From Bilabrum cf. latius (Eukaryota): 64,000 nt of DNA. Both the position numbers and the translations under genes were made by a program. The stretch spans positions 496,001 through 560,000 of the forward strand of contig OZ237757.1 of assembly GCA_965178125.1 (NCBI GenBank). Reading direction: 5' to 3'. A model generated the notes under the pieces. It searched no databases, was not told where the DNA came from, and worked only from the letters and a program-made list of their open reading frames with translations. This document shows, one piece after another, positions 24,853-54,884 of this stretch. Positions within the stretch are counted from its first letter, which is position 1. Every line of letters begins with the position of its first letter.

Positions 24853-27800
24853 ATGAAGTGGATGCATCGCAGTAGAGAATTTCAAGCTGCTACTCTGTTT
24901 TCTGTAGTACTGTTTGCAGTGTCCGTGTCCACTGCTCAGGACATCCAGGTCTATGAGCTCTCTGGAGCAGGAGAAAGCCTCAAACTTAGAAGTGGCGCAG
25001 GATCGAGTGCAACTAACTCCTCTGCCATATTTTATGGGGGAGATATAGAGCAGGGGGGTACCACGGTCGCACGCGTGGACGAGAGTAAGCGACTCTGTGA
25101 ATTGCAGCAACTCACGCACCAAGCGCCACACGATAACTAAAGTCGAAATGAATATCCATTACTAATCCGCAGCTGGGATTGCCACTACGATGAGCTCGAG
25201 TGGTACAGCACCTCCAGTCCTTGGGACTGCGTTCGCAGCCTCGTCCACGCACGCGTACACATACGGTGGCGCCAATCCAACGAACGGAGCCGCCATGCGA
25301 GGTACATATGTAATGTCATTAGGTAAGAATTATGAATGATATGGTCCTGTGACTGAGCCAGTCCTGCTTCACCTCGACAATGCAAACACTCGCTGCTGCT
25401 GTCGCCGCTGCTGCTGCTTCTCGTCGTCACAGACACTATGGCTTGGACTAAACTGGCACCAACAGTTCTGACAAGCCCTCGGCGATACGCGGCAGCCACT
25501 GTGCTGCGCGACTGCGAGGCGTTGGGTGAGGACTGCTTGCTCGTCAACGGCGGGCAGGGAGGCGGCTCCACCATCCACGCGAGTACCGCCGTGCTCAAGC
25601 CGGACAGCACTCCTCTCGAGTGGGAAGCACCTGCGGCAGCCCAGAGCGATGCACCCGCGGGCCGTTTTGACCACTCTCTTACGGCTGATCCCACTGGCCG
25701 CATGGCCGTGCTGTTCGGGGGCCGCACTGGACCCGACGCCGAGGACGCAACCAACCACGTGTGGGCGATCAGCTCGGTGGGGTTCAGGGGATCCGGGGAT
25801 CTCGCCAACATCGCCAAGGGACAGCCCGTTTACCAGACCAGCTCTAATGACAACTCGAGATTCAAGCCAGGGCGGGCTGTGGACGGGCTGTTGTCAACCA
25901 ATGCGGACAACGAGTAGTGCTCGGCAGGCACGACTGAATCGAACCCGTCGCTGTCGGTGGACCTCGGGGGTCCAAGAGAGGTGTCTGAGATCCGCTTCTA
26001 CCGCCGCTCGGACTGGCGTCAAGACAACCCGAATGGAGTGCGGTTCTCCGTGAATAACCACCGCACGGACCCGCTGGATGGTGAGGGCACTTCTTCCTTC
26101 ACCGAGTGCAACAACCCGTACACTGGCAGGTTGCCGGTGCCTACCGTGGTCAGCTGCACCGGGGCTGTGGGACGGTATGTACATGCCTTCCTGCGTGGAT
26201 CCGACAAGCGGCTGGACGTGTGCGAGCTCATGGTCATGGGCCCGCAGCCGTGGAAGTGGAAGTCCATCAACAACGGAGAGATCGAGGTGGCCAGCGGCAA
26301 GCCCACTGCTGCCACGCAGCAGGCGTGGGATGGAACCGCCGCCAAGATCAACGACGGGACCAAGGATCAGAGCCACAGCAACTTCAAGTCGTGCACCCAC
26401 TCTGGCGGTCACTCAGGCACGCACCACTGGGTGAGGATCGATCTCGAGAAGACGTTCGACCTGACCCGGGTGAAGATCTACGACCGCGAGGACGGGTGCT
26501 GCAGGGACCGGTCCAAGCAGATCTCCGTGTGGGTGGGGAACAACAAGGAGAGGTACGACCTCAACACCGAATGCGACGAAGACGTGCCGAGCCCCATCGC
26601 CAAGACCGCAGATGTGACATGCAAGCGGACCGGCAGGTATGTCTGGTTCGTTCAGCCTAAAGTAGGCAACACCTTATCTATATGCGAAGCCGAAGTGTAC
26701 GCGATGCCTGTCCGCAACCTGCCCGTGCCCCGCTTCGGTCACGCTACCACGCAGCATCGCGGTGTGGCCTGGATCTACGGTGGCATAGACGCGGATGGAT
26801 CTGCCCTGGGAGACGTGCACGCCCTGGATCTGCGCACCTTTGAGTTCAATTCGGCCCTGAAGATCGTGGGCCAGGCCCCTGCCGCACGTGGATTCGCATC
26901 GCTGGCCCCTGCAGGCGATGGGTCTCTCATCTTGCTTGGCGGCAGGTCAGGCGCTCTCGTGTCTTCCGACCGCGTGGAGGGCGCATACAGGATGCAGCTG
27001 CCTGCCTGCAGCGACCTGAACTTGGCGGGTGTGACGGGTAAGGACTGCTTCCGTGGGTCGTGCTACTACGAGTGCTCGACCGGATTCGAGGCGACTAACC
27101 TGGTGGGTGGCCCGCCTGTGACGTGTGAGCTGACTGGGTACTACTCGGGCTTCTCTCCAGTTTGCAAGGCCGAAACAGCCGATGCACCCCCGAGTGTGTC
27201 AGCCACCATCAGCGGTCGCACTGCAACGGTGACATGGGACCCGCCGACCGACTTCGGCACGTACACGAGTGCCACCCACTACGCAGTGCGGGCGGGCGAT
27301 ACGTACGTCGGCACGGACTTCAGTGATGGCGAGCTCCCTGCTGGCTGGACGTACAGCAACTACGGCAAGAGCACCAACACAATCACGTTTGAGCCTGGCC
27401 GCGATAAGTCCGGGGGCAGTGGATACGTGAAGTGGGACATGAAGGAGCGAGGCAACTGCTGGTGGTCCGAGAACGACTGTCCCCGGATCTTCGTGCCTTG
27501 GCCAGCTGGCATCAACTTTGAATCTAGCCCAACCGAAGGTAATAAGTGGGACGTGCAAGTGAAGGTGTGGGTCGGTGATGGCGCGCTTCCACATGGATAC
27601 ACGGGGGTGGGCATCGGTCTCGTCGAGGATGACCCAGCCAAACCAGAGTACGGCCAAGTTCGCCTGTACATGATGTTCGGTCGTCTAGCTGGATCGAATA
27701 CCATGCGAGTTTATGTGGAAGAGAATGGATATAACAAGCGAGTTCGAGATATTCCTGCAGATGAGAACGGAAGATTGTAGACGCTACGCATGATGTACGA

Positions 27801-30800
27801 CCCACAGTACGAAAGGATCACGACGTTTCATCGCGGACCCAATGACAACAACTGGAGAGAGATCTTTGAAGGGGGCTGGTGGATGGGACACTTACAGAGG
27901 GGTGGTCGTGTTAGCAAGGGCAAGCTGGTCATCATGTCCAAGTCGTGGTCAGACGTGGCTCAGACCTACTTCATCGACGACATCAAGGTCTCTGTGCAGG
28001 ACTGCCCAGCGAGCGGAGTGACTCGCCTCGCACCCCTCGCTGGCCTGACCCCCGCAGGCACTCCCAGCGGCAAGCTCCGTGCAACGTCTCCCATGCTGTC
28101 CAAGGGAATCAACTACAAGTTCCAGACGGCCGCAGTGACAGAGGCTGGGCTGGGCGACTGGTCTGACTACAGCAACTGGGTAATGCCCACCAACCCGCTT
28201 GAGTTCGGGCTGGAGAACGTGGCGAGGCAAAAGCCTGTCCGAGAATGGGGCGGAATATCAAACGGAAATTGGGCTTCAAGAGCTGTGGACGGCTACAACG
28301 GAAATGGAGAAATGGGATCTGGCCGCTGCATGCACGGGGCTTGGGCAAACTAGCCAAGGATCCGTATCGACCTCGAGTCACAGTTCAAAGTGGACACCAT
28401 CCGAGTGGCCCAGCGGATCAACTACTGCTGCTACGACCGAAGCTTGGGCACTGTGGCGTACGTGGGTGATGACCCCAACAACTTCAACAATAACCAGGTA
28501 TGTGAGGGTAGTCTCAACGCTTGGGACGGCCTCATCAAACTCCTGCGGTGCAACAACGCGATTGGCCGGTACGTGTGGATTGTCACGCCACCAAAGTGGA
28601 CTTTCCTGGAGCTTTGTGAGGTGGAGGTGCTGGCAGACAACAAGTGCGACGATCGGCAGCCGGCCAACACGGCTAGCGTTGGCACATGCACGAACGCTCG
28701 CAACGGTGACATCTGCACACACTCGTGCCTCCCTGGCTATGTCGAATCATCCGGGGAGTCTACCGCGGTGTGTAGGTACGGTGACTGGACCACGGAGCCT
28801 CTCGAGTGTGTGAAGCAGTGCCCTGCTCTTCCTGCCCCTTCTGGCTCCGAATCTTGCAAGCAGGCCGTGGCAGCCGAGGACTTCGAGATTGCTGACTCTG
28901 CCATGAAGCGGTTCGCGTCATCGGACCAGGCCAAGTTCCCGCTGACCGATTACTGGCACGTGGTGGACGGCCGCATGCTGGCCATGCCTCCACCCAGCGA
29001 TGGCGAGTGCCTCATGGACAACGAGGGCATGGTGGCGCTGCTGACCGATCCTGACCCTCGCGCGCAAGACGTGGAGTACTCTGTGTCTGTGGACCTGAGA
29101 TCGGAAGATGATGCCGGGTTGGTTTTCCGGGCAGCTACTTCTGGTCTCTTCTACTATGCATCGATCGGGTTCAGGTCCGGAATCCACCGCATCGTACGGC
29201 GAACGGGGGCTGCATCCGACGACGTGGAGATCGCGACGTCGGGCGTGTCTTTGCGCCGACTGGACTCGTCCGACCCACAGGACAAGCACAAGCTGGAGGT
29301 GCTGCTGAACGGCGAGAACATGGAAGTACGGCTGGATGGAGCACGTGTCATGACGGCCTCGGATGGATCCATCGCTTCGGGTGACGCGGGACTGTGGGCG
29401 CTGGGCCCCGCCGAGTTCGATAATCTGCGTGTGGATGCGCCCTGCCTGGTGGGTGGTGGCGACTCGGTCAGTGGATGCAGGCAGCTCTTCTACCAGGACG
29501 AGTGCGGGTTCACCTGCCGCAAGGGCTTCGATTCCAACGGGACCTCTGTGTCGAGGTGCATGGCCAATGGGGTCCTCCAGCAGCCCCAGGGCCCGCCGCA
29601 GTGCCTCATCCGGCCCCCTGTGGCAGTGGACCAGGAGCGCAACGTGACCGAGAATTCGCCCAGGAACACAGCCGTGGGGGATCCCGTCCGCGCCTCACTT
29701 GAGGCGGACGAGCAGATGGAGTTCAGCATCGTGGCAGGCGACGCCATGGAGGCCTTCCGCATCGGGCTGTGCGACGGGCAGCTGCGGGTGTTCGACCAGA
29801 GCCAGCTGGACTATGAGGTCAAGGAGGAGTTTGAACTGACCATTCGGATCGGCGTGAATGGGTTCTCGGCTTACACGGACATCAACGTCACGGTGCACGT
29901 GCAGGACGTGAACGAGCCCCCCACGCTGCCCGCCCAGAGCTTTGTAGTGCAGGAGAACTGCCAACCCATGACGCCGGTCGGGTAGCCGCTCGTGGGGCTG
30001 GCAGATGATCCCGAGGATGATACGCTGACCTTCCATCTGGACTTTGATGGAACTGACGGGATGTTGCTGCTGGACGAGACCTCGGGTCAACTGTCGCTCA
30101 ACTTCTCATCTCCACAGCGGCCCACAGGTACTGGTCACCCCGTCGATTTCGAGAATGGCCCCGCCTCCGGGTCCTTCTTGGCCATCGTGCAGGTGGAGGA
30201 CACCGTGGGAAACACGGCCTCCAGCTTCATCACCATGGCTCTCAACGACACCAACGATGCCCCCGAGCTAGACACCGTCAGTGGTGCAGGAGCTTCGAGT
30301 CTGCCTCAGTCCCAGGTCCTCACCGTGGATGAGTACGTGGCTGTGAGCATGGACGGGGCTCCCATGGATCCTTCGGTGCAGGCCGTGGACCAGGACCAGG
30401 GCCTTTACACTTCCGAACTGTCCTTCCGATTCACGAGCAAGGGTGCCAGCGGCTCTTCCCCGCTGCAGGGGACCCTCATCCGGCAGCAGGCCTCGGACAG
30501 CACTCCACAGGAAACCACTGGTGTCGTCTTGCAGGAGGGTGGGCAGGACCTGTTCACGATTGATGCTCACAGGGGCAATGTGTCTGTCACAGCCGTGCCC
30601 AGTCCTCAGTGGTCCATCACCAGCGACTACTCGCCGTACCTGTCTTTGGACGCTTCCACACAGGGCGTGCTGGTGCGGGCAGAGTACGTGTTGGAAGTGG
30701 AGGTGCGAGACAGGTTCGGAGCCACGGCCACGAGCAATGTGCGCTTTGTGATCGCCGCAAATGACTCGAGCATTCCTGTGATCCGCGAGGTGGCCTGCGA

Positions 30801-33800
30801 GGGTGATGGCATGCCCACGCGGGGTGGGGTGGTGTGCAACTTTACTGGCACTGGACTGGGGTCTGCAAGCAACACCGTGGGTGCATGGGTGACTCGCGCA
30901 AACCCACAGGGTGGCACGGGCCGCCTGGATTTCACCGGCTGCTCGATCGTGAAGGACTCTGTGATGATCCAGTGCATGAGTCCCGAAGGGTATGGCCGTG
31001 GATTTGACGTGCACGTGCAGGCGCAGGGACAGGAGGCCTTCAAGGCATCTCAGCTGCGGCTCAACTTCAGAGACCCCACCGTGACCGCTGTGAGCTAGAG
31101 CGCGCAGGCACTGGCCACCGAGGGAGGTACGGAGGTGGTGCTGTCAGGCGAGAACCTGGGGCCTGCGGGCAAGCAGACGGTGCGGTACAGCGATGGTCGT
31201 GGCGGGCAGCTGACCTGCCAGGTGAGAAGCTCGCTTGAGATCGGCGAGACGAGCCATGACACGGTGCGCTGCATCACGCAGGAGGGCTCGGGCAGCAACC
31301 TGCAGTGGATGATGTCCATCAACGAGGAAGCCGAGCTCACTGTCATGTCCATGCGTGCAGATGGGCAGGCCGATGCCGGGGCAGGGGCTGGTGAGGGTAC
31401 TGTAGCGGACCTGTTCGGATTCTCGTATGCACTCCCGCAGATCACAGGCGTGGAGGGACTGTCCAGCTCGCAGGACGTGAGGCAGCTATCCACGGCCGGC
31501 GGTGAGACCGTGGTGGTGCGAGGCAATAACTTCGGACCTGCTTCGGAAGCCGTGCGGGTGTGGCTGACGTATGCCCCGGAAAGCCCCGTGACCAGTATGG
31601 GAGCGGCGCTGGGCGGATACATGTACGAGATGGCCAGCTGCAGCAAGCCCGAGACAGGGGCCATGGCGCACAAACTGCTGCACTGCACAATGCCTGCGGG
31701 AGTGGGGCGGGGCCTGGTGTTGAGCATGTCCGTGAACGGCCAGTCGCAGGACGGCAGCACCTGCTATGCCCCTACTGTGGACGAGGGCAGCGATGCCGTG
31801 GATCAGCTGGACAGGGACCTGGTGTGTCCCAATTCCACGATCGCGTTCGTATCCTATGCGCCACCTCGCGTGGACCGCGTGCTGGGCGCAGACGGATCTG
31901 ACACGCGTGGCGGGCAGTCCTTCACGCTGGTGGGCGCGGGTTTCGGGCCCATGGAGCTGACAAATCTGGGCAGCGTGTCGTCTGTACTGTACGGTCCTGC
32001 AGACGCGGGCAACCTCAGGTATGATGCCACTGCCACCTGCAGGGTGTCGCAGGCCGATGTGGAGATCGAGTGCAGCACGCTGCCAGGGACCGGCAAGGAC
32101 CTGCAATTCAACCTGGCCGTGGCTGGGCAGGCCTCCACTAGCGATGTGGTACAGACCACGCATGCCTACGCGCAGCCCGTGCTGGCCACATTCGAGGGCG
32201 ACGGTGCGTCTGGTGCGGAGACTCCCGGTGGGCAGGTGGTGGCGCTGCACGGCAACAACTTCGGGCCCATGGGCGCCGGAATCGACACGCCCCTCAACGC
32301 GACGTACGACCTGTCCGTGGCGGGCGTGGGCTCAACCACGTTCCAGGCCGTGGACTGCCAGCTCACGGTGGCACATATCACGATCGAGTGCAGGACAGCA
32401 GAGGGGGCTGGCCGTGCCCTGGCCTGGACCGTGGTCGTGGACTCGCAGCCCAGCCGCAGCCCCACCACGAACTACGAGGTGCCTGTGGTGACCGCGGTGG
32501 TGCGGCCAGGGACCAGCGCAGGAGCGCGCGTGTCCGATGCAGACGTGGACGGCGGTGAGACGTTGGAGATTCACGGCACTGGCTTTGGGTCGCCTGACTT
32601 GGTGCTGGTGGACGAGGAGACGGGGGCTGTGTCGAACGCGCTGGAGAGCATCACGTACGGTCCCACAGGCACGGAATATACGCCGGTGTCTGTGACACAT
32701 GTGTCGCACACGCTGATCCAGATCGTGACGGAGCCGGGATGGGCCATGAATGCGTTCTTCCGCGTGGTGGTGGCCGGGCAGTCCAGCAGCACGAGCCCGC
32801 CCGCCTCGACCGACGCCACATTCGACTTCGCCAAGCCTTTGCTGGTGTCCCTGGCGCCGTCGGCAGTCAGCAGCACGTACTCGCCCGAAGACATCCCGCA
32901 GATCGTGAGGCTGACCACGCGGAATGTGCCCCTGAGGGACCGTCTGTCCAGGCCCGTGGTGCTGTTTGGGGGTCAGGTGCGGCAACCGACGTCTGCCATT
33001 CGCAATCAGGATGGCAGCCAGACCATCGCATTCACCCTCCCCGAGCATGGAGGCGGTTTCGCCATCCCAGTGAGGGTGGGGGTGGCCCCGGTCCGCGAGG
33101 ACGCCTCCCAGTCCGCGCCCAACCCGGAGTCGCTGTCTCTGCTGCAGGACCCGGCCACCATCTTCGCCTACCAGGCTCCCAGCATCGACCGACTCGTGGT
33201 GACCCGGCCTGCATGGACACAGCCGGGTTACGTGTCAGGCGCGAACACCCCGGCAGAGCAAAACTGCACCTTCGGGCCAGGGGATCCGTTCACATGCACC
33301 GACACGGACGTGCTGCAGGTGCTCATCATCGGGACTGGATTCTCGGATCCAAGGGGCTTCCGCCAGGACGGCGACGCGAGGGGGCTGCTGCGGGCGGACG
33401 TGTCTATGCTGCCTCTGCTGCGGTACCCGCTGGTGGTGCGGTCGCACACGCACAACCGTATCTTGGCCTACACTAACGAGCAGACAGGATCTGTGCAAGT
33501 GCAGGTGAGCGCCACGCTGCCTCAGTCGCTGGTGGACCAGGGCATGACCAGCGCGCTGGGCGTGGCAGTGGACACGATGGAGCAGCGCACCGACAGCGAG
33601 ACCTGGCAGCTGCTGGCGCCCTCCATCGCGGCGCTGCAGGGCACCACAACCGGACTGCCCACGGCCGGCCAACAGCCCGAAGATGGCACGCCGGCGGACG
33701 GCAACGGCATCACGATCGTGGTGGGCGGACTGGAGACGACCAAGAAGGTGAGGGTGCTGGTGGGGCCCAGCGCCAGCTCGGTGACTGCTTGCCGGGTGTG

Positions 33801-36800
33801 GTCGCTGCTGGAGAGCCGCTGGCTGGAAGCGAGTGCGAGTGGGTCCGACATCCAAACGCACGTGATCGACGTGATCGACGCCGCGGCTAACCAGCAGGGC
33901 ACGCAGGCCGTGTACGAGGTGTCGTTCCTGATCCCCGAGGCGCCCGCCACGCCCGAGCCGCTGGACGACATCCGGGTGTTTGTGGACCGCGATGGGGCGC
34001 TGTCCAGTGGCGACGACTCGTTCGCATATGCCGAGCCGTACGTGGCAGCTGTGGACGTGTGGATGCCGGCGGACGGCGCGTCCGGAGACCAGCCCACGGA
34101 CGCGAGTCCCGTGGAGTCCCACTGGCAGCGGGCCTGGGTTGCGCTGGATGCGAGCGATGTCCGGGTGCCCACTCGCGGTGGCTGGATCCGGGTGCGGGGC
34201 CAGGACCTGACGCAGTGTCCGCTGGTACGACTGGGCGACGGGCACATGAGCACGTGCACGCAAGGCATCGTCGCGTACGGACACCCGGACAGTGCCTCTT
34301 CTGCCAATCGACTGGCCTGCCAGCCAGCTGTTGCAGGTGGCAGCACGCCGTCGCTGCACGAGTGCTTCATCATCCCCGTGCCCGCGGGTGAGGGCGACGG
34401 TCTGCAGTACAACGACACGATGACCGGCTTCGTGCTGGATGTAGAGGCGGGGCTGCAGTCCATGGTACTGGCGGAGGACGTGGAAGACGTGCAGGCGGGA
34501 GGCGTCACGGACGGCGCTGACGGGATCGTGCCGAGGCGGCCCGGCGACGGTCCCACGGCGGTGCGGCTGGCCAACGTGCGGCGCGGCCTGCTGCAGTACT
34601 CGCACATCCGGCCTAGTATTGTCAGCGTGCAGCCCGCGGCGCAGACCGACTCGGTGCCGACCGCGGGCGGCGTGACTATGCTGGTGCGTGGAGCGAACTT
34701 CGGTGAGACCCCGAGCATGCGGCAGGCCCAAGCCGATGGCATCGACATGTTCATCCGCGTGGAGCTGGGCGTGCCTAGCAACAATGCAGGGGCCGTGCAG
34801 GCGTTTGGTCGAGCGGTGGAGTGGGTGGACTGTGCGAATGCAACCCGAGTGTCGCACGAGGTGGTGGAGTGCGTGCTGCCCGAAGGAGCCGGGTCCAACG
34901 TGGCGGCTCGAGTGACGGTGGCCGGGCTGGTGGGCGAGGCTGGCGGCATGGTGACGTATGACGCGCCCGTGGTGACCGCCGTGGCTCTGCATGGGCACTC
35001 GTCATCCTTCATGTCAGCGCTGGACGAGATGGATGACCTGTTCGAGGACGACGCCGACCCCACTGGGCTGCTGCGGGCTCAGGCCGTGTGGCTAGACACT
35101 GGCTTGGTCCGGCATGTGCCAAACGCCACGGTGCGCGCCACCATCGGACCGGTGGTACAGTTCGCATCTTTGTCGAGCGGAAGCCTGCAGGTGACAGGGG
35201 CTCCCACCAGAGGAGGTCGTCCCAACGGCCTGGACATGATGTACCCAGCAGCGGCCCACGTGACGCTGTTCGGACAGAACCTGGGCCGCAGGGGGGCGGT
35301 GGGTGATCCCCAGCTGTGCGTGTTCCTGGCGCAGTCCACGCGCAACACGGGTCTTGCTCTGGTGTGCGACGGCATGGAGGGCTTCCCCGGAGAGGGCGAG
35401 GTGCCGTCGTGGACGGTGGTGGTACACACGCACGACCGCATCACGTTCGAGCTGCCCGAGGGCGTGGGCCAGAAGGATCTGCAGGTGTCTGTGGGCGGGC
35501 GCACGCTTGTGGTGCCCACCACGCAGGACCAGCCCCGCCTACTGTATGCCCCCCCAAGCATCAGGGAAGTGCTGCCCGTTGTGCCCGCCAACGGCCCCAC
35601 CATCGGTGGGTACCTAGTGACGGTGCATGGAGCCAACTTCGGTCCCAAGCAGCGCAACGTCACATCGTTGGGTCAAGCCGTGGAGCTGGCCCAGGGTCGC
35701 TTTGTGTCCCCGCTGCCTCTGTCCATGGCATCCGCCGTGCCCACGTCATACCTGGTGGTGGACTTCTACCGGTCGTGCATCACGGACGCCACGTCGCCCG
35801 AGGGCCTGAAGCCCCAGCTGGGACGCACAGCAGGGTGCGACTATGTGATCGAAGACCGCGACCATGACTTCGTGACCTTCCGTGTGCCCGAGGGGATCGG
35901 GGCGAGCAGGGACGTGGCAGTGGAGGTCGTGGACGTGGCGGTGGCCGAGCTCCGAGCAAGCAGCGGCGCCGTGGGCTTCTCGGGCGTGTAGCGATCCGAG
36001 TCTCGCGGGGCCTTCTCCTACGATGCGCCGGAGATCGACCGCACGGATCCCACGCGCGTGTACCTCGAGTCTGGCCAGGACCTGGAGCAGTACCGGGACG
36101 TGCTGCTAGAGGTGCAGCGGCGTGTAGAGGAGCTGTTCGCCGGCGTCAGTAGCACTGGCACTGCCGACGTTGATGCCATCCTGCACGCGGCCCAGCAGCC
36201 TCTGTCGGAGTTCATCAACAGCGGCGAGCAGGCTTGGGGACAGGCGCTGGATGAGCTGCGACAAGAGGCCGGGTCCTCGCCGCGGCAGGCAGACGCGCTG
36301 CAGGGCCCCACCAAGATGGTGTACATGTTCGGCCGCAACTTCGGCAACCCTGCACTGGCACTGCGGTAGAACTGGAGCGATGCAGAGCGCTTCGTGGGTG
36401 CGTCCATCGGGAACGTGACCTGCCTGGAGACCAACCGCGGCAGACAAGCCGTGACGGATGACCCGCTGGAAGACCCGGCATCCACGCAGGTGGAGTGCGA
36501 GATCGAGGCACTGACAGTGGGGTACAAGAACGTGACGCTGCGAGTGGCAGGCCAGGTGGGCATGCTGGACGCCAGAGAGGGAGTGAGCGGGGTGCACTTC
36601 GTGTGCGCGCCTGGCCAGTTCGGGTTGGACGGGGAGTTCTGCCTGCCATGCCCGCAAGGAGCGGACTGCCCGGGCTACGACACGGATGTGCGGCGCAGCA
36701 TGCCGCCGCGTCCGCAGAGCGGCTTCTACAACCTCAACTCCTCTGACGGTCTCAGCGGCAACATGACCGACGCTGAGTGCCCCAGCCGCAAGCAGGTGCC

Positions 36801-43500: not shown

Positions 43501-46500
43501 GCCGCGTGCAGGATGGCATCAACGTCAGCAGTGCCAGTGCCACTGACGCCGGCGAACAGCTCCTCGACACGCCGCTGCACCTCTAGCAACACCTCCCGGT
43601 ACTGCTCCAGGTCCTGGCCAGACTCGAGGTACACGCGCGTGGGATCCGTGCGGTCGATCTCCGGCGCATCGTAGGAGAAGGCCCCGCGAGACTCGGATCG
43701 CTGCACGCCCGAGAAGCCCACGGCGCCGCTGCTTGCCCGGAGCTCGGCCACCGCCACGTCCACGACCTCCACTGCCACGTCCCTGCTCGCCCCGATCCCC
43801 TCGGGCACACGGAAGGTCACGAAGTCATGGTCGCGGTCTTCGATCACATAGTCGCACCCTGCTGTGCGTCCCAGCTGGGGCTTCAGACCCTCGGGAGACG
43901 TGGCATCTGTGATGCACGACCGGTAGAAGTCCACCACCAGGTATGACGTGGGCACGGCGGATGCCATGGACAGAGGCAGCGGGGACACAAAGCGACCCTG
44001 GGCCAGCTCCACGGCTTGACCCAACGATGAGACGTTGTGCTGCTTGGGACCGAAGTTGGCTCCATGCACCGTCACTAGGTACCCACCGATGGTGGGGCCG
44101 TTGGCGGGCACAACGGGCAGCACTTCCCTGATGCTTGGGGGGGCATACAGTAGGCGGGGCTGGTCCTGCGGGGTGGGCACCACAAGCGTGCGCCCGCCCA
44201 CAGACACCTGCAGATCCTTCTGGCCCACGCCCTCGGGCAGCTCGAACGTGATGCGGTCGTGCGTGTGCACCACCACCGTCCATGCCGGCACCTCGCCCTC
44301 TCCGGGGAAGCCCTCCATGCCGTCGCACACCAGAGAAAGACCCGTGTTGCGCGTGGACTGCGCCAGGAACACGCACAGCTGGGGATCACCCACCGCCCCC
44401 CTGCGGCCCAGGTTCTGACCGAACAGCGTCACGTGGGCCGCTGCTGGGTACATCATGTCCAGGCCGTTGGGACGACCTCCTCTGGTGGGAGCCCCGGTCA
44501 CCTGCAGACTTCCAGTCGATAAAGATGCGAACTGTACCACCGGTCCGATGGTGGCGCGCACCGTGGCGTTTGGCACATGCCGGACCAAGCCAGTATCTAG
44601 CCACACGGCCTGAGCCCGCAGTAGCCCAGTGGGGTCGGCGTCGTCCTCGAACAGGTCATCCATCTCGTCCAGCGCTGACATGAAGGATGACGAGTGCCCA
44701 TGCAGAGCCACGGCGGTCACCACGGGCGCGTCATACGTCACCATGCCGCCAGCCTCGCCCACCAGCCCGGCCACCGTCACTCGAGCCGCCACGTTGGACC
44801 CGGCTCCTTCGGGCAGCATGCACTCCACCACCTCGTGCGACACTCGGGTTGCATTCGCACAGTCCACCCACTCCACCGCTCGACCGAACGCCTGCACGGC
44901 CCCTGCATTGTTGCTGGGCACGCCCAGCTCCACGCGGATGAACATGTCGATGCCATCGGCTTGGATCTGCCGCATGCTCGGGGTCTCGCCGAAGTTCGCT
45001 CCACGCACCAGCATAGTCACGCCGCCTGCGGTCGGCACCGAGTCGGTCTGCGCCGCGGGCTGCACGCTGACAATACTAGGCCGGATGTGCGAGTACTGCA
45101 GCAGGCCGCGCCGCACGTTGGCCAGCCGCACCGCCGTGGGACCGTCACCGGGCCGCCTTGGCACGATCCCGTCACCGCCGTCCGTGACACCTCCCACCTG
45201 GACGTCTTCCACATCCTCCGCCAGTACCATGGACTGCAGCCCCGCCTCCACATCCAGCACGAAGCCGGTCATCGTGTCGTTGTACTGCAGACCGTCGCCC
45301 TCACCCGCAGGCACGGGGATGATGAAGCACTCGTGCAGCGACGGCGTGCTGCCACCTGCAACAGCTGGCTGGCAGGCCAGTCGATTGACAGAAGAGGCAC
45401 TGTCCGGGTGTCCGTACGCGACGATGCCTTGCGTGCACGTGCTCATGTGCCCGTCGCCCAGTCGTACCAGCGGACACTGCGTCAGGTCCTGGCCCCGCAC
45501 CCGGATCCAGCCACCGCGAGTGGGCACCCGGACATCGCTCGCATCCAGCGCAACCCAGGCCCGCTGCCAGTGGGACTCCACGGGACTCGCGTCCGTGGGC
45601 TGGTCTCCGGACGCGCCGTCCGCCGGCATCCACACGTCCACAGCTGCCACGTACGGCTCGGCATATGCGAACGAGTCGTCGCCACTGGACAGCGCCCCAT
45701 CGCGGTCCACAAACACCCGGATGTCGTCCAGCGGCTCGGGCGTGGCGGGCGCCTCGGGGATCAGGAACGACACCTCGTACACGGCCTGCGTGCCCTGCTG
45801 GTTAGCCGCGGCGTCGATCACGTCAATCACGTGCGTTTGGATGTCGGACCCACTCGCACTCGCTTCCAGCCAGCGGCTCTCCAGCAGCGACCACACCCGG
45901 CAAGCAGTCACCGAGCTGGCGCTGGGCCCCACCAGCACCCTCACCTTCTTGGTCGTCTCCAGTCCGCCCACCACGATCGTGATGCCGTTGCCGTCCGCCG
46001 GCGTGCCATCTTCGGGCTGTTGGCCGGCCGTGGGCAGTCCGGTTGTGGTGCCCTGCAGCGCCGCGATGGAGGGCGCCAGCAGCTGCCAGGTCTCGCTGTC
46101 GGCGCGCTGCTCCATCGTGTCCACTGCCACGCCCAGCGCGCTCGTCATGCCCTGGTCCACCAACGACTGGGGCAGCGTGGCGCTCACCTGCACTTGTACA
46201 GATCCTGTCTGCTCGTTGGTGTAGGCCAAGATACGGTTGTGCGTGTGCGACCGCACCACAAGCGGATACCGCAGCAGAGGCAGCATAGACACGTCCGCCC
46301 GCAGCAGCCCCCTCGCGTCGCCGTCCTGGCGGAAGCCCCTTGGATCTGAGAATCCAGTCCCGATGATGAGCACCTGCAGCACGTCCGTGTCACTGCACGT
46401 GAACGGATCCCCTGGCCCGAAGGTGCAGTTTTGCTCTGCCGGGGTGTTCGCGCCTGACACGTAGCCCGGCTGTGTCCATGCAGGCCGGGTCACCACGAGT

Positions 46501-49500
46501 CGGTCGATGCTGGGAGCCTGGTAGGCGAAGATGGTGGCCGGGTCCTGCAGCAGAGACAGCGACTCCGGGTTGGGCGCGGACTGGGAGGCGTCCTCGCGGA
46601 CTGGGGCTACCCCCACCCTCACTGGGATGGCGAAACCGCCTCCATGCTCGGGGAGCGTAAATGCGATGGTCTGGCTGCCATCCTGATTGCGAATGGCAGA
46701 CGTCGGCTGCCGCACCTGACCCCCAAACAGCACCACGGGCCTGGACAGGCGATCCCTGAGGGGCACATTCCGCGTGGTCAGCCTCACGATCTGCGGGATG
46801 TCCTCGGGCGAGTGCGTGCTGCTGACTGCCGACGGCGCCATGGACACCAGTAAAGGCTTGGCGAAGTCGAATGTGGCGTCGGTCGAGGCGGGCGGGCTCG
46901 TGCTGCTGGACTGCCCGGCCACCACCACGCGGAAGAACGCATTCACGGCCCATCCCGGCTCCGTCACGATCTGGATCAGCGTGTGGGACACATGTGTCAC
47001 AGACACCGGCGTATATTCCGTGCCTGTGGGACCGTATGTGATGCTCTCCAGCGCGTTCGACACAGCCCCTGTCTCCTCGTCCACCAGCACCAAGTCAGGC
47101 GACCCGAAGCCAGTGCCGTGGATCTCCAACGTCTCGCCGCCGTCCACGTCTGCATCGGACACGCGCGCTCCTGCGCTGGTCCCTGGCCGCACCACCGCGG
47201 TCACCGCAGGCACCTCGTAGTTCGTGGTGGGGCTGCGGCTGGGCTGCGAGTCCACGACCACGGTCCAGGCCAGGGCACGACCGGCCCCCTGTGCTGTCCT
47301 GCACTCGATCGTGACGTGCGCCACCGTGAGCTGGCAGTCCACGGCCTGGAACGTGGTGGAGCCCACGCCCGCCACGGACAGGTCGTACGTCGCGTTGAGG
47401 GGCGTGTCGATTCCGGCGCCCATGGGCCCGAAGTTGTTGCCGTGCAGCACCACCACCTGCCCGCCGGGAGTCTCCGCACCAGACGCACCGTCGCCCTCGA
47501 ATGTGGCCAGCACGGGCTGCGCGTAGGCATGCGTGGTCTGTACCACATCGCTAGTGGACGCCTGCCCAGCCACGGCCAGGTTGAATTGCAGGTCCTTGCC
47601 AGTCCCTGGCAGCGTGCTGCACTCGATCTCCACATCGGCCTGCGACACCCTGCAGGTGGTAGTAGCATCATACCTAAGGTTGCCCGCGTCTGCAGGACCG
47701 TACAGCACCGACGACACGCTGCCCAGATTGGTCAGCTCCATGGGCCCGAAACCCGCGCCCACCAGCGTGAAGGACTGCCCGCCACGCGTGTCAGATCCGT
47801 CTGCGCCCAGCACGCGGTCCACGCGAGGTGGCGCATAGGATACGAACGCGATCGTGGTATTGGGACACACCAGGTCCCTGTCCAGCTAATCCACGGCATC
47901 GCTGCCCTCGTCCACAGTGGCAGCATAGCAGGTGCTGCCGTCTTGCGACTGGCCGTTCACAGACATGCTCAACACCAGGCCCCGCCCCACTCCCGCAGGC
48001 ATTGTGCAGTGCAGCAGTTTGTGCGCCATGGCCCCTGTCTCGGGCTTGCTGCAGCTGGCCATCTCGTACATGTATCCGCCCAGCGCCGCTCCCATACTGG
48101 TCACGGGGCTTTCCGGGGCATACGTCAGCCACACCCGCACGGCTTCCGAAGCAGGTCCGAAGTTATTGCCTCGCACCACCACGGTCTCACCGCCGGCCGT
48201 GGATAGCTGCCTCACGTCCTGCGAGCTGGACAGTCCCTCCACGCCTGTGATCTGCGGGAGTGCATACGAGAATCCGAACAGGTCCGCTTCAGTACCCTCA
48301 CCAGCCCCTGCCCCGGCATCGGCCTGCCCATCTGCACGCATGGACATGACAGTGAGCTCGGCCTCCTCGTTGATGGACATCATCCACTGCAGGTTGCTGC
48401 CCGAGCCCTCCTGCGTCATGCAGCGCACCGTGTCATGGCTCGTCTCGCCGGTCTCAAGCGAGCTGCTCACCTGGCAAGTCAGCTGCCCGCCTCGACCATC
48501 GCTGTACCGCACCGTCTGCTTGCCTGCAGGCCCCAGGTTCTCGCCTGACAGCACCACCTCCGTGCCTCCCTCGGTGGCCAGCGCCTGCGCGCTCTAGCTC
48601 ACAGCGGTCACGGTGGGGTCTCTGAAGTTGAGCCGCAGCTGAGATGCCTTGAAGGCCTCTTGTCCCTGCGCCTGCACGTGCACGTCAAATTCCCGGCCAT
48701 ATCCTTCGGGACTCATGCACTGGATCATCACAGAGTCCTTCACGATCGAGCAGCCGGTGAAATCCAGGCGGTCCGTGCCACCCTGTGGGTTTGTGCGAGT
48801 CACCCATGCACCCACGGTGTTGCTTGAAGACCCCAGTCCAGTGCCAGTAAAATTGCACACCACCCCACCCCGCGTGGGCATGCCGTCACCCTCGCAGGCC
48901 GCCTCGCGGATCACAGGAATGCTCGAGTCATTTGCAGCGATCACAAAGCGCACATCGCTCGTGGCCGTGGCTCCGAACCTGTCTCGCACCTCCACTTCCA
49001 ACACGTACTCTGCCCGCACCAGCACGCCCTGTGTGGACGCGTCCAAAGACAGGTACGGCGAGTAGTCGCTGGTGATTGACCACTGAGGACTGGGCACGGC
49101 TGTGACAGACACATTGCCCCTGTGGGCATCAATCGTGAACAGGTCCTGCCCACCCTCCTGCAAGACGACACCAGTGGTTTCCTGTGGAGTGCTGTCCGAG
49201 GCCTGCTGCCGGATGAGGGTCCCCTGCAGCGGGGAAGAGCCGCTGGCACCCTTGCTCGTGAATCGGAAGGACAGTTCGGAAGTGTAAAGGCCCTGGTCCT
49301 GGTCCACGGCCTGCACCGAAGGATCCATGGGAGCCCCGTCCATGCTCACAGCCACGTACTCATCCACGGTGAGGACCTGGGACTGAGGCAGACTCGAAGC
49401 TCCTGCACCACTGACGGTGTCTAGCTCGGGGGCATCGTTGGTGTCGTTGAGAGCCATGGTGATGAAGCTGGAGGCCGTGTTTCCCACGGTGTCCTCCACC

Positions 49501-52500
49501 TGCACAATGGCCAGGAAGGACCCGGAGGCGGGGCCATTCTCGAAATCGACGGGGTGACCAGTGCCTGTGGGCCGCTGTGGAGACGAGAAGTTGAGCGACA
49601 GTTGACCCGAGGTCTCGTCCAGCAGCAACATCCCGTCAGTTCCGTCAAAGTCCAGATGGAAGGTCAGCGCATCATCCTCGGGATCATCTGCCAGCCCCAC
49701 GAGCGGCTACCCGACCGGCGTCATGGGTTGGCAGTTCTCCTGCACAACAAAGCTCTGGGCGGGCAGCGTGGGAGGCTCGTTCACGTCCTGCACGTACACC
49801 GTGACGTTTATGTCGGTGTAGGCCGAGAACCCATTCACGCCGATCCGAATGGTCAGTTCAAACTCCTCCTTGACCTCATAGTCCAGCTGGCTCTGGTCGA
49901 ACACCCGCAGCTGCCCGTCGCACAGCCCGATGCGGAAGGCCTCCATGGCATCACCCGCCACGATGCTGAACTCCATCTGCTCGTCCGCCTCCAGTGAGGC
50001 GCGGACGGGATCCCCCACTGCTGTGTTCCTGGGCGAATTCTCGGTCACGTTGCGCTCCTGGTCCACAGCCACAGGGGGCCGGATGAGGCACTGCGGCGGG
50101 CCCTGGGGCTGCTGGAGGGCCCCATTGGCCATGCACCTCGACACGGAGGTCCCGTTGGAATCGAAGCCCTTGCGGCAGGTGAACCCGCACTCGTCCTGGT
50201 AGAAGAGCTGCCTGCATCCACTGACCGAGTCGCCACCGCCCACCAGGCAGGGCGCATCCACACGCAGGTTGTCGAACTCGGCGGGGCCCAGCGCCCACAG
50301 TCCCGCGTCGCCCGAAGCGATGGATCCATCCGAGGCCGTCATGACACGTGCTCCATCCAGCCGTACTTCCATGTCCTCACCGTTCAGCAGCACCTCCAGC
50401 TTGTGCTTGTCCTGTGGGTCGGACGAGTCCAGCCGGCGCAGAGACACGCCCGATGTCGCGATCTCCACGTCGTCGGATGCAGCCCCCGTTCGTCGTACGA
50501 TGCGGTGGATCCCGGACCTGAACCCGATCGATGCATAGTAAAAGAGACCAGGAGTGGCTGCCCGGAAAACCAACCCGGCATCATCTTCCGATCTCAGGTC
50601 CACAGACACAGAGTACTCCACGTCTTGCGCGCGAGGGTCAGGATCGGTCAGCAGCGCCACCATGCCCTCGTTGTCCATGAGGCACTCGCCATCGCTCGGT
50701 GGAGGCATGGCCAGCATGCGGCCGTCCACCACGTGCCAGTAGTCGGTCAGCGGGAACTTGGCCTGGTCCGATGACGCAAACCGCTTCATGGCAGAGTCGG
50801 CAATCTCAAAGTCCTCGGCTGCCACGGCCTGCTTGCAGGATTCGGAGCCAGAAGGGGCGGGAAGAGCGGGGCACTGCTTCACACACTCGAGAGGCTCCGT
50901 GGTCCAGTCGCCATACCGGCAAACAGCAGTAGATTCCCCGGATGATTCGACATAGCCAGGGAGGCACGAGTGAGTGCAGATGTCACCGTTGCGAGCATTC
51001 GTGCATGTACCAACGCTAGCCGTGTTGGCCGGCTGCCGATCGTCGCACTTGTTGTCTGCCAGCACCTAGACCTCACAAAGCTCCAGAAAAGTCCACTTTG
51101 GCGGCGTGACAATCCACACGTACCGGCCAATTGCGTTGCATTTCAGAAGTCTGGTTAGACCTGACCACGCGTTGAGGCTGCCTTCACACAGCTTGTTGTT
51201 GTTGAAGTTGTTGGGGTCATCACCCACGTACGCCACAGTGCCAAAGCTTCTTTCATAGCAGCAGTCCCTCCGCTGGTACACCCGGATTGTGTCCACCTTG
51301 TACTTGGCCTCGAGGTCGATGCGGATCCTGGGCTAGTATGCCCAAGCCCCGTGCATGCAGCGGCCAGATCTCATCGCTCCATTTCCATTGTAGCCGTCCA
51401 CGGCTTTCGAAGCCCAATACCTGTTGTATATTCCACCCCATTCTCGGACAGGCTTTTGCCTAGCCACGTTCTCCAGCCCGAACTCAAGCGGGTTGGTGGG
51501 CACTACCCAGTTGCTGTAGTCAGACCAGTCGCCCAGCCCAGCCTCTGTCACTGCGGCCGTCTGGAACTTGTAGTTGATCCCCTTGGACAGCATGGGAGAC
51601 GTTGCACGGAGCTTGCCGCTGGGAGTGCCTGTGGGGGTGAGGCCAGCGAGGGGTGCGAGGCGAGTCACTCCGCTCGCTGGGCAGTCCTGCACAGAGACCT
51701 TGATGTCGTCGATGTAAAAAACCTAGTCTGCGTTCGTCCAAGACTTCGCAAAGATCACCAGCTTGCCTTTGCTGACCCTGCCGCCCCTTCGCATGTGTCC
51801 CATCCAGAACCCGCCTTCATACAGGTCCCTCCAGTTGTTGTCGTTAGGGCCTCGGTAGAATGCCGTTACACGATCCTCTCCTGGGTCGTACTTCATTCGC
51901 AGAGTGAGTTCCCTGTCGTTGGCACCAGCACCAATAGTTTTGGTTCGCTGGCCATATCCATTCTGCTCGAAGTATACCCGCATGTTATTCTGTCCTGCTA
52001 CACGACCATACATCATGTACACACGCAGCTGCCCATACTCGGGCATTGAAGGGTTATCCTCGACGAGACCGATGCCGAGGCCTGCATATCCGTGCGGCAA
52101 CGCGCCATCACCAACCCACACCTTAACTTGCACGTCCCACATGTTGCCTTTGAATCCACTAGTCGCGTCATCGATGCCAGCTGGCCAAGGCACGAAGATC
52201 CGGGGACAGTCGTTCTCGGACCACCAGCAGTTGCCTCGCTCCTTCATGTCCCACTTCACGTACCCGCTGCCCCCGGACTTATCGCGACCAGGCTCAAACG
52301 TGATCGTGTTGGTGCTCTTGCCGTAGTTGCTGTACGTCCAGCCGGCAGGGAGCTCGCCGTCACTGAAGTCCGTGCCAACGTACGTATCGCCCGCCCGCAC
52401 TGCGTAGTGGGTGGCACTCGTGTACGTGCCGAAGTCGGTCGGCGGGTCCCATGTCACCGTTGCAGTGCGACCGCTGATGGTGGCTGACACACTCGTGGGC

Positions 52501-54884
52501 GCATCGGCTGTTTCGGCCTTGCAAACTGGAGAGAAGCCCGAGTAGTACCCAGTCAGCTCGCACGTCACAGGCGGGCCACCCGCCGGGTTGGCCACCTCGA
52601 ATCCGTTCGAGCACTCGTAGTAGCACGACCCGCGGAAGCAGTCCTTACTCGTCACTCCCGCTAAGTTCAGATCGCTGCAGGCAGGCAGCTGCATCCTGTA
52701 TGCGCCCTCCACGCGGTCGGAAGATACGAGAGCGCCCGACCTGCCGCCAAGCAAGATGAGAGACCCATCGCCTGCAGGGGCCAGCGATGCGAATCCACGT
52801 GCGGCGGGGGCCTGGCCCACGATTTTCAGGGCCCCGTTGAACTCAAAGGTGCGCAGATCCAGGGCGTGCACGTCTCCCAGGGCAGATCCATCCGCATCGA
52901 TGCCACCGTAGATCCAGGCAACGCCGCGATGCTGCGTGGCGGCGTGACCGAAGCGGGGCACGGGCAGGTTGCGGACAGGCATCGCGTACACTTCGGCTTC
53001 GCAAATGGTCAAGGTGTTGCCTGCTTTAGGCTGAACGAACCAGACATACCTGCCGGTCCGCTTGCAGGTCACATCGGCGGTCTTCGCGATGGGACTCGGC
53101 ACGTCTCCGTCGCATTCGGTGTTGAGGTCGTACCTCTCCTTGTTGTTCCCCACCCACACGGAGATCTGCTTGGATCGGTCCCTGCAGCACCCGTCCTCGC
53201 GGTCGTAGATCTTCACCCGGGTCAGGTCGAACGTCTTCTCGAGATCGATCCTCACCCAGTGGTGCGTGCCTGAGTGACCGCCCGAGTGGGTGCACGACTT
53301 GAAGCGGCTGTGGCTCTGATCCTTGGTTCCATCGTTGATCTTGGCGGCAGTTCCTTCCCACGCCTGCTGCGTGGCAGCGGTGGGCTTGCCGCTGGCCACC
53401 TCGATCTCTCCGTTGTTGATGGACTTCCACTTCCACGGCTGCGGGCCCATGACCATGAGCTCGCACACGTCCAGCCGCTTGTCGGCTCCACGCAGGAAGG
53501 CATGTACATACCGTCCCACAGCCCCGGTGCAGGTGACCACGGTAGGCACCGGCAACCTGCCAGTGTACGGGTTGTTGCACTCGGTGAAGGAAGAAGTGCC
53601 CTCACCATCCAGCGGGTCCGTGCGGTGGTTATTCACGGAGAACCGCACTCCATTCGGGTTGTCTGGACGCCAGTCCGAGCGGCGGTAGAAGCGGATCTCA
53701 GACACCTCTCTTGGACCCCCGAGGTCCACCGACAGCGACGGGTTCGATTCAGTCTTGCCTCCAGCGCACTGCTCGTTGGTTGACACCGTCGACAGTAGCC
53801 CGTCCACAGCCCGCTCTGGCTTGAATCTCGAGTTGCCATTAGAGCTGGTCTGGTACACGGGCTGTCCCTTGGCGATGTTGGCGAGATCCCCGGATCCCCT
53901 GAACCCCACCGAGCTGATCGCCCACACGTGGTTGGTTGCGTCCTCGGCGTCGGGTCCAGTGCGGCCCCCGAACAGCACGGCCATGCGGCCAGTGGGGTCA
54001 GCCGTGAGAGAGTGGTCGAAGCGGCCCGCGGGTGCATCGCTCTGGGCTGCCGCGGGTGCTTCCCACTCGAGAGGAGTGCTGTCGGGCTTGAGCACGGCGG
54101 TACTCGCGTGGATGGTGGAGCCGTCTCCCTACCCGCCGTTGACGAGCAAGCAGTCCTCACCCAACGCCTCGCAGTCGCGCAGCACAGTGGCTGCCGCGTA
54201 TCGCCGAGGGCTCGTCAGAACTGTTGGATTTATGGTTTCCCATGTTAATGAGGCTGCGGGGTCCAATCGGATGCTTGAAATCTACCACTGGCTAAATGAA
54301 GTGAGTTGGATCCACTGACGCGTCTCGACTCCGGGGATACTATCTTCGCATACGTGTTCAAATATTGGGCTAAGCCAAACAGTAAAACCAAATATACACT
54401 TTCTCACATGTTGGCATTTTGTAGGTAGTCCGCGTTGCAGCTGACCTGGCGCTATTTTCTCCGCCGTATGCATACACGACAGTCTTGCCTTGTGCGACTG
54501 CAACCCCGTTTTTCGAGGGTTGCACAGACGAACCAAAGTCTTGAGTGCGAGCGACACCGTCTGCAAGGAAATTATTGGAAATTTCAATTATGGAGGCGGG
54601 CTTTATGGCTCCCGTTCGGGCGGGCTAGCATGCAATGACCTTGGCACTGGTGTTTTGGTTCGTGCACCCAACAGTGGTCACTCACGCTGGTCAACCTCAA
54701 TGAGAGAAGCTGCTCCAGAGCCAGCATCTCCACCAAAGAACATCGCTGAAGCATTTGTAGACACCGATCTTGCTCCACTTCGTAGCTTTAGTGCCGATCC
54801 TGAAGCAGAAAGCTCGAACACAGCCACATCAGCGGCACGCGTCAACGCGAAGAGCACTAGGATTAGGGAAAACTCGGATAGCAT
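40569..54884 (-). CDS. Giant multidomain surface receptor/adhesin, copy B, ~4678 aa (exons 54884-54686, 54560-54408, 54253-40569)
   Basis: Inverted paralogue of copy A with the same two phase-1 intron positions. Nine in-frame TAGs. Ends at TGA 40569-40571. Confidence 0.9.
40587..54227 (-). repeat. Right arm of the ~13.7-kb inverted repeat
   Basis: Same evidence as the left arm. The arms are separated by a ~1.45-kb spacer that is not part of the repeat. Confidence 0.95.

Follow-up and report, generated by a model that had tools for sequence, protein, structure and literature searches.

The window (the whole stretch of DNA that was analysed, 64,000 nt) was aligned with itself by BLAST and a single large inverted repeat was found: 25459–39134 against 54227–40567, 96.25% identity, 13,676 columns, E = 0; the genes flanking it are not duplicated in the window. 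The left arm (25459..39134, plus strand) and the right arm (40567..54227, minus strand) enclose a spacer of 1.43 kb (39135..40566) that holds both unalignable 3' flanks and a dispersed short repeat (39612..39760, plus strand; 40 or more genomic matches; another copy at 56904–57008).

Each arm carries most of one gene. Gene A (plus strand) was modelled as exon 1 (24853..25084; N-terminus with a signal peptide, assigned from hydrophobic residues 10–28), intron 1 (25085..25172, 88 nt), exon 2 (25173..25322), intron 2 (25323..25432, 110 nt) and exon 3 (25433..39132, 13.7 kb, TGA stop). Gene B (minus strand) comprises exon 1 (54686..54884, signal peptide), intron 1 (54561..54685, 125 nt), exon 2 (54408..54560), intron 2 (54254..54407, 154 nt) and exon 3 (40569..54253, TGA stop). 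In A and B, and likewise in two paralogs, both introns are in phase 1, as the conserved intron positions and phases noticed in the first-pass annotation implied. The proteins have 4693 (A) and 4678 (B) residues, and both genes are intact.

Exon 3 of gene A encodes Kelch, F5/8, Sushi, cadherin, IPT/TIG and multi-pass membrane domains; Pfam cadherin matches were obtained only at exon 3 residues 1404–1553. The membrane domain (36967..38469, plus strand) has eight strong hydrophobic segments in the hydropathy plot and probably a ninth helix, one further long helix being present in the structure model (pLDDT 67). Foldseek gave no match to this domain at E ≤ 0.001, and the best VIA match (Z 8.4 over about 100 residues) was to generic helical bundles. 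A and B are surface proteins of ~4,700 residues with a lectin-like and Kelch head, a cadherin and IPT/TIG stalk and an anchor of 8–9 passes; judged from these domains, they probably act as receptors in adhesion or prey capture. The giant "cadherin domain-containing" proteins that include FNF28_00400 of Cafeteria roenbergensis are of the same length class, combine Kelch, IPT/TIG, F5/8-type and cadherin domains, and are 45% identical to A/B in the membrane region. The "nonagonal cadherins" of Fletcher et al. 2016 reportedly have nine membrane passes and a run of several cadherin repeats; A and B appear to differ from these and from the FNF28_00400-type giants in having a single cadherin-matching region and many IPT/TIG repeats.

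The near-identity of exon 3, third codon positions included, was confirmed over the ~13.7 kb (fourfold sites different: 179/2541, 7.0%), and so were its limits: in both genes it sets in 26 nt after the start of exon 3 and decays over the last ~20 nt before TGA. Exons 1 and 2 are not homogenised and are alignable mainly as protein, in line with the first reading (42% protein and 48% DNA identity). The introns, upstream DNA and 3' flanks of A and B, described earlier as unalignable, align no better than shuffles; the observed score was reached by 88 of 200 shuffles for intron 1, 122 for intron 2, 53 for 600 nt upstream and 166 for 700 nt downstream. Different codons are used at 34 of 48 same-residue positions of exons 1–2 between A and B (A against the paralog C2: 31 of 47), and protein identity of C2 in this part is 40% to A and 39% to B. 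By these counts exons 1–2 appear saturated, A being as distant from B as from the nearest outside paralog, and any age estimate is therefore a lower bound; it is to be read with caution, exons 1–2 being fast-evolving anyway (40% identity to C2 versus 61% for the start of exon 3). Since both introns are kept in A and B and exons 1–2 and the 3' flanks are unshared, the likeness was not copied through mRNA.

Contigs from 4 of 11 listed public runs were compared with the assembly; all represent the same strain at the sites checked, and none of those listed is recorded as an RNA run. X5, X6 and X7, which bear other organism labels, were considered as an outgroup and rejected, as they reproduce arm B. 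A haplotype mis-join or polishing cross-talk would fit the position of the most identical part near the inner ends of the arms, the spanning of the whole structure by none of the listed contigs, and the somewhat lower depth of B-allele contigs in X1 (40–49, against about 63 for A-allele contigs). The outcomes named beforehand for such an artefact were not seen in the run contigs, and it is scarcely credible: the flanking genes are single, X1 contains both allele sets and both inner junctions, A–B differences are mostly at third positions, and B's letter was found at 14 of 14 listed positions checked. The exon 3 allele string of gene B is reproduced, contigs of two other studies giving the same difference count as arm B over 8.9 kb (245 = 245) and 7.4 kb (166 = 166). 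One X6 contig links exon 2 of gene B to its exon 3 and leaves a loose end at 25459; an X6 contig equals A (0 differences) over 37785–38134, within a tract assembled as identical.

The palindrome is real, as first proposed; exon 3 is a single 13.7-kb exon only if TAG is a sense codon, a condition that the first-pass annotation does not state. In-frame TAG occurs eight times in A (25915, 27778, 28351, 29983, 31096, 35989, 36367, 38224; plus strand) and nine times in B (54131, 51725, 51335, 51068, 49709, 48596, 47888, 43325, 41468; minus strand); in-frame TAA or TGA is absent from exon 3. A reading of these codons as pseudogene marks was discarded, as only TAG occurs, is common to both arms and is present in essential genes. 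In ten near-identical pairs of family genes the codon opposite TAG is TAG (64), CAG (40), CAA (3) or other (9). In columns conserved with outside homologs Gln stands at 14 of 27 TAG sites and another residue at 13 (CAG: Gln at 311 of 456), and in housekeeping genes TAG faces Gln of human CBP20 and PCYT2; the single TAG in a conserved part of PRP8 and the TAG sites of ABCF were uninformative on codon meaning. Of 48 family ORFs, 40 end with TGA, 4 with TAA, and 4 run off the fetched DNA.

The gene for the release factor eRF1 stops with TAA and itself carries TAG at the Leu69 position, which faces Leu in three of the four structures shown and Gln in one. Its GTS and YxCxxxF motifs are intact; TASNIKS reads TAVNIKS. 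A tRNA with CTA (CUA) anticodon was found on the same contig (G000:C23:907607-907679, 69.8 bits); 48–50 of its 75 letters match Tyr, Glu and Gln tRNAs alike. Judged from the alignments and the tRNA, TAG almost certainly stands for Gln in this organism, probably a bicosoecid stramenopile, and TAA and TGA are kept as stops. On lineage, ABCF homologs (best hits 35–39%) were uninformative; among the 120 NAD7 matches listed, five reach 88–100% identity, those at 88–98% pointing to existing relatives, and the sole one with an organism name, Cafileria marina at 71%, is no closer than many others.

Uniform divergence along the gene, named at the outset as the pattern opposed to conversion, was not seen. 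Exon 3 is strongly uneven (χ2, p = 3e-22), and remains so without the diverged patch and the ends (p = 5e-5); dS between A and B: 0.115 (25459–27400), 0.09 (28600–33500), 0.044 (33500–36600) and 0.022 (36600–39060). The patch, at about 27400..28600 (plus strand; counterpart in gene B at about 51090–52290), comprises an unassigned extracellular domain and the following F5/8-like stretch (dS 0.53, 81% amino acid identity); outside it, protein differences are about 0–3% per window. The longest fully identical tract (37558..38267, plus strand, 710 nt) was reached in 0 of 2000 permutations. A third donor for the patch was rejected, A and B matching C2 equally (17 and 15 of 75 differing residues), and so was positive selection, a dN/dS of 0.23 giving no demonstration of it. 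C2 changes its nearest relative along the gene: it is closer to A upstream (0.61–0.70, versus 0.44–0.60 to C17), and nearer to C17 (0.86) than to A (0.83) in the membrane region.

Selection on protein and codon use alone could be invoked for the likeness of exon 3, dN/dS being 0.08–0.23 across all its segments and GC-ending codons dominating. Against this, C2 differs at 60% of fourfold sites, compared with 7% between the arms; and in the C4 pair the homogenised block includes two introns that are near-identical, with a diverged coding tail, so protein or codon selection cannot be the cause there. The selection-alone reading is largely refuted by these two comparisons and is very improbable.

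The family as a whole was then set beside the palindrome: 28 of the 48 ORFs have a near-identical partner, and similar mosaics occur in nine other inverted pairs or clusters (C9 pair: patches of 4–12% amid 17–85%). In six of ten pairs examined identity drops at or before the stop codon; in the other four it continues past the stop, as recent duplication would also yield. In a membrane-domain tree (quick method, no close outgroup) local copies group together. Distance to the spacer is not supported as driver of the 3'-ward fall in dS, which is found also in a tandem pair (p = 7e-9); the head-to-head pair shows no reversal of it, and no more than 3 of 10 pairs give a significant fall. Cross-contig copies show co-variation of synonymous and protein divergence, which may reflect cross-contig conversion; a general dN–dS correlation or codon constraint could account for part of the gradient.

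That co-variation in other pairs, and the coincidence of both arm ends with the limits of long homology, would also suit a single recent long replacement of exon 3 onto an old paralog (break-induced or template-switch repair), followed by rate differences. Such an event is improbable given dS from 0.02 to 0.53 within one exon, its fourfold fall where protein identity is flat at 98–99%, the absence of such a trend in the C19–C40 pair (0.122, 0.094, 0.127), the same pattern in most pairs, and a GC excess that requires repeated rounds.

Nine of the ten inverted clusters are convergent (binomial p = 0.02; two are nested in one locus), and the extracellular heads are the variable parts. Both points would agree with convergent pairs serving as a regulated variation device, in which a spacer flip by crossover between the arms swaps 3' UTRs and distal exon parts, or read-through yields a long hairpin RNA, and one of two receptor heads is expressed at a time; the long contigs of runs X5 and X6 carry B alleles, although contig depth cannot rank expression of A against B. 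This device is quite unlikely: no recombinase and no specific boundary motif was seen, no flipped form was met among the run contigs, and the spacers range from 0.4 to 105 kb with other genes inside. Moreover, the mosaic of the inverted pairs recurs in tandem, head-to-head and cross-contig copies, and palindrome geometry is therefore not required.

Silent-site composition follows homogenisation. GC4 is 0.57–0.60 in the patch (C2 0.60) and 0.71–0.82 elsewhere in the arms (C2 0.65–0.74); where A and B agree and differ from C2, GC stands in A/B at 313 sites and the reverse holds at 163. Paired family genes have GC4 of 0.77 versus 0.70 for unpaired ones (exception: the unpaired C22, 0.85), and TAG/CAG is 85/2523 in paired and 150/1491 in unpaired genes, i.e., about threefold fewer TAG in converted copies; the counts behind these GC and TAG contrasts are not independent of one another, and at cluster level p = 0.016 (10 clusters versus 20 singles). 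Expression-linked codon bias is a rival cause of both contrasts. As GC4 tracks homogenisation, conversion is probably GC-biased.

The likely explanation of the locus, held with good confidence, is repeated gene conversion that is probably GC-biased and confined to long homology free of indels. A and B would derive from an old inverted duplication. In the non-coding DNA and the 5' exons of 150–230 nt homology would have decayed below the level that recombines; the indel-poor 13.7-kb exon would have stayed alignable and been repeatedly overwritten by non-allelic conversion in tracts of several hundred bases to kilobases, most often at the most conserved part of the protein (the membrane domain) and rarely in the variable extracellular patch. 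Mismatch repair favouring G/C would raise silent-site GC and push recoded TAG (Gln) codons towards CAG; proximity of copies would help, and palindromic geometry would be unnecessary. Of the old inverted duplication with ongoing conversion first proposed, the old duplication and repeated conversion are supported (uneven dS, diverged 5' ends, GC); conversion may also be ongoing, as the 710-nt tract identical between A and B of one strain suggests.

The system is of value because it is replicated: a compact protist genome carries some ten inverted clusters of a single family that have decayed to varied degrees, on which one can test what triggers and what halts conversion (indels, exon length, distance, orientation) and study GC bias outside animals, plants and yeasts. 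They also warn that the apparent age of such pairs lies far below the real one. Of more importance than the palindrome is the genetic code. It would be a further independent split of UAA and UAG, probably in a supergroup new to it, and is directly testable, as the tRNA and eRF1 are at hand and RNA data are available; annotation under the standard code would fragment these genes. A search of the literature outside subscription papers, database notes and bioRxiv supplements gave no report of a nuclear UAG change in stramenopiles and nothing on palindromes of this gene family. The chances are about evenly divided for the combined reading, in which an unreported stramenopile code change (UAG = Gln only, own CUA tRNA, eRF1 whose own synthesis needs UAG read-through) meets GC-biased conversion that removes TAG; the remaining doubt concerns the lineage, a possible earlier report and what caused the TAG deficit. 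If true, it would offer a natural experiment on the effect of recombination on how a newly captured codon is used.

According to the accessible parts of PMC11687900 and PMC5304391, UAA and UAG nearly always change jointly, and UAG = Gln with UAA as stop is described for Iotanema spirale, Protocruzia tuzeti and two phyllopharyngean ciliate lineages. There, as here, UAG stands in frame at Gln positions and UAA and UGA terminate; unlike those lineages, the present organism probably belongs to the bicosoecid stramenopiles, which are absent from the lists in those parts. For eRF1, the same parts give T32G in Iotanema, whereas here GTS is kept together with TAVNIKS and TAG at the Leu69 position.

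Coding-restricted concerted evolution is described for mammalian KRTAP1 in the available portion of bioRxiv 10.1101/282418. The same type of boundary, abrupt at the exon or coding edge with diverged flanks, is present here; the KRTAP1 test was made across species and on tandem repeats, whereas here the copies are mostly inverted and of one species, the tract is 13.7 kb and its 5' limit is an exon edge. Fugu protocadherins, as far as the consulted part of PMC1852091 describes them, resemble A/B: they too are surface proteins of cadherin type whose 5' coding part has diverged and whose 3' coding part is near-identical, with a discrete boundary between them and a GC3 that is higher on the converted side; they form tandem vertebrate arrays with >99% identity in the converted part, whereas the present family consists of giant proteins with several membrane passes, most of them in inverted pairs, at 95–98%. 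Arms around a spacer kept alike by conversion are reported, in the sections seen, for Caenorhabditis inverted pairs (PMC1803023) and the human Y palindrome P6 (PMC3723533), the latter with GC bias, multi-kb tracts and rare inversions. Those sections give 95–100% identity for the worm arms and >99.9% for the Y arms, non-coding DNA included in both. Here inverted 13.7-kb arms likewise surround a unique spacer; each arm coincides almost exactly with a single exon and identity is 96%, in place of the >99% identity extending into non-coding DNA of the Y/X type. Silent and intronic similarity beyond protein selection (fourfold sites; C4 introns) is present, and the palindrome cleanly exemplifies a process already known, conversion between old duplicates that is limited to an exon.

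Self-BLAST of the window gave a single large inverted repeat, 25459-39134 versus 54227-40567 (96.25% over 13,676 columns; spacer 1,432 nt). Each arm holds one reading frame interrupted by TAG alone (8 in the left gene A, +, exons within 24853-39132; 9 in the right gene B, −, 54884-40569), and neither TAA nor TGA was found in these frames ahead of the terminal TGA. Both genes were modelled with three exons and two phase-1 introns, as were paralogs C2 and C17a, in agreement with the conserved intron positions and phases noted by the first-pass annotation. Its near-identity of exon 3 over ~13.7 kb, silent sites included, was borne out (fourfold-site difference: A–B 7%, A–C2 60%), as were limits near the exon-3 start and just before the stops (identity starts 26 nt inside exon 3 and fades ~20 nt ahead of the stops); introns, upstream and downstream DNA, described there as unalignable, scored at shuffle level. 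Apart from the uneven divergence inside the arm, the pair was accurately described.

Contigs from 4 of 11 listed public sequencing runs were compared with the palindrome. Run X1 has the alleles of A together with those of B, one contig that enters arm A from the DNA upstream of it, and both arm–spacer junctions; it may be the source of the assembly and is therefore not independent support. Contigs of X5 and X7 (two other studies) show exactly the difference counts of arm B (245 over 27972-36825; 166 over 28834-36270); X6 contigs gave 111 and 281 differences, the expected arm-B counts being 107 and 277 plus gap columns. B's letter was present at 14/14 listed positions checked. An 11.8-kb X6 contig terminates in B exon 2 with exon 3 attached directly to it, as four diagnostic letters show; the predicted splicing of B therefore takes place. 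None of the run contigs listed spans the whole palindrome. A mis-join or polishing artefact, the alternative raised earlier, is unlikely, given both allele sets in X1 and the exact B matches in X5 and X7.

Exons 1-2 are 42% (A–B), 40% (A–C2) and 39% (B–C2) identical, with silent positions saturated in all three comparisons. In exon 3, dS between A and B was 0.115 (25459-27400), 0.53 (a patch, 27400-28600), 0.09 (28600-33500), 0.044 (33500-36600) and 0.022 (36600-39060). The longest identical tract, 710 nt, was reached in 0/2000 permutations, patch included or excluded; unevenness stayed significant within 28600-39060 (p = 5e-5), and uniform divergence along the gene, named beforehand as counter-evidence, was not observed. 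The patch is 81% identical between A and B versus 44% to C2, so an earlier round of homogenisation must have reached it too. With three or four ages or more within one gene, a single event is unlikely. Fourfold-site GC in the patch was 0.57-0.60, the C2 level; in the homogenised segments it exceeded that of C2 by 0.05-0.11. Among fixed A=B differences from C2, GC in A/B was favoured by 313 to 163.

The protein search returned 56 matches out of 71 candidates; 48 family ORFs were examined (one unrelated long ORF excluded; unpaired genes mostly covered by 10-kb stretches only). Mean fourfold-site GC was 0.77 in the 28 with a near-identical partner versus 0.70 in the 20 without (cluster level, p = 0.016), one unpaired gene at 0.85 being an exception; expression could contribute to this contrast. 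Ten inverted clusters (9 convergent, 1 head-to-head) lie on contigs C23, C33, C7, C3 (two nested, one separate), C29, C19, C4 and C9; the C17 copies are in tandem. Most paired arms share 95-98% identity, and their extent is often that of the long exon; of 10 pairs, 6 lost identity no later than the stop and 4 kept it into the flank. Among six pairs examined, the C29 and inner C3 copies again had diverged short 5' exons, and in C33 the likeness extends past the gene. In the C4 pair (G000:C4:316350-318400 vs 368200-370270; stretches L060, L107) two introns are near-identical inside the homogenised block, unlike the diverged coding tail. The C9 pair is decayed, with islands of 4-12% difference among 17-85%. 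Mosaics also occur between copies on different contigs, and the nearest relative of C2 switches along the gene; silent and protein divergence co-vary in these comparisons, for which general constraint could be part of the cause, counting against conversion.

Further observations were made at these loci: a recently converted island at the membrane domain of the convergent C9 pair (G000:C9:767413-779697 and 844753-857163); a ~136-kb nested palindrome of this gene family (G000:C3:826000-962400; L021-L034), made up of one outer pair and inner copies, 3 forward and 2 reverse, with intergenic DNA between opposite arms mostly unalignable; the 21-kb spacer of another pair (G000:C3:1158686-1176925; L036-L038), full of 87-nt tandem repeats arranged in three larger duplicated blocks; and, 100-400 nt beyond the stops of the C7 pair, a separate 90-100% identical 3'-flank block despite diverged final coding codons.

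Nuclear TAG is very probably read as Gln, TAA and TGA being stops. Once TAG is read through, the other genes of the window (CYFIP, ABCF, PCYT2, pseudouridine synthase, CBP20-like and TrmO) are long ORFs, each closed by TGA or TAA. Opposite TAG in ten pairs, 52 non-identical cases had CAG 40 and CAA 3 times; against outside homologs, TAG faced Gln in 14/27 conserved columns (some repeated among paralogs), and Tyr, Trp or Lys was the top residue in 0/27. Gln also stands opposite TAG in human CBP20 and human PCYT2. TAG made up 85/2608 of TAG+CAG codons in paired genes versus 150/1641 in unpaired. A CTA-anticodon tRNA was located at G000:C23:907607-907679 (L062:1500-1574; 63/780 tRNA candidates scored); it resembles the Tyr, Glu and Gln tRNAs about equally, with 48-50 of 75 letters shared. 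eRF1 (L137:1550-3420) terminates with TAA, has TAVNIKS in place of TASNIKS and keeps GTS intact. It also carries an in-frame TAG where human eRF1 has Leu69; among the other structures shown, three have Leu there and one, of plant type, has Gln. This TAG could make eRF1 synthesis self-limiting. Iotanema, Protocruzia and two phyllopharyngean lineages are known to read UAG as Gln while UAA still terminates (PMC5304391, PMC11687900). No stramenopile case was found in the literature searched, whose coverage was incomplete; the host is probably a new lineage for this code.

The genome comprises 48.6 Mb in 111 contigs. Mitochondrial genes on a 38.4-kb AT-rich contig (G000:C111; L132-L135) are open under table 4 (TGA=Trp), with a TCA-anticodon tRNA; such features are described for Cafileria and Cafeteria (PMC6723347), and the host is therefore likely a bicosoecid stramenopile. 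Among the matches listed, its NAD7 has relatives at 88-99%, then a drop to 73%. The A and B products (4693 and 4678 aa) have a signal-like N-terminus, Kelch, F5/8, Sushi, cadherin and IPT/TIG domains (Pfam) and 8 strong hydrophobic segments close to the C-terminus; the top named homolog, a 4574-aa Cafeteria roenbergensis protein, has a similar domain set and a 45% identical membrane region. The membrane-region model (pLDDT 67) gave no clear match to known structures; judged by their domains, the two proteins may serve in adhesion or in capturing prey.

A CYFIP-family gene (17523-24599, +; ~2,350 codons, enlarged by Gly/Ala-rich insertions) ends 250 nt ahead of A. A short repeat (39612-39760 and 56904-57008), with a purine-rich tract after it, is dispersed through the genome (at least 40 matches). 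Of two head-to-head long ORFs, the right (61988-64000, +) has a MACPF domain (Pfam, E 8e-7); the left (57704-61459, −) is similar by eye, with no Pfam match. Scattered over nuclear contigs (G000:C3:1096678, 1096994, 1133102; C5:282086; C7:1154419; C9:698618; C25:323122) are several AT-rich, tRNA-Met-like sequences that are nearly identical to one another, and a related one with a Pro anticodon; they may represent a mobile tRNA-derived element.

Divergence is old at the edges and layered in the interior, GC is in excess, and the pattern recurs family-wide. An old inverted duplication with arm-to-arm conversion, as first proposed, is supported by the layering, GC and family repetition, and we hold it to be probable. 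Conversion would require long gap-free homology, which coding constraint may have kept in the long exon only; it would be self-reinforcing wherever the protein tolerates it. Crossover between arms would invert the spacer. Such crossover is reported as rare in Y palindrome P6 (PMC3723533). Beyond the palindrome itself, the added value lies in replication across the family and in the probable new code lineage. Y/X palindromes are defined by >99% identity including non-coding DNA, and the A/B palindrome falls outside that definition. KRTAP1 is likewise reported to change abruptly at stop codons (bioRxiv 10.1101/282418), and fugu protocadherins (PMC1852091) and worm inverted pairs (PMC1803023) work in a comparable manner; the A/B palindrome is an instance of this known kind of process.
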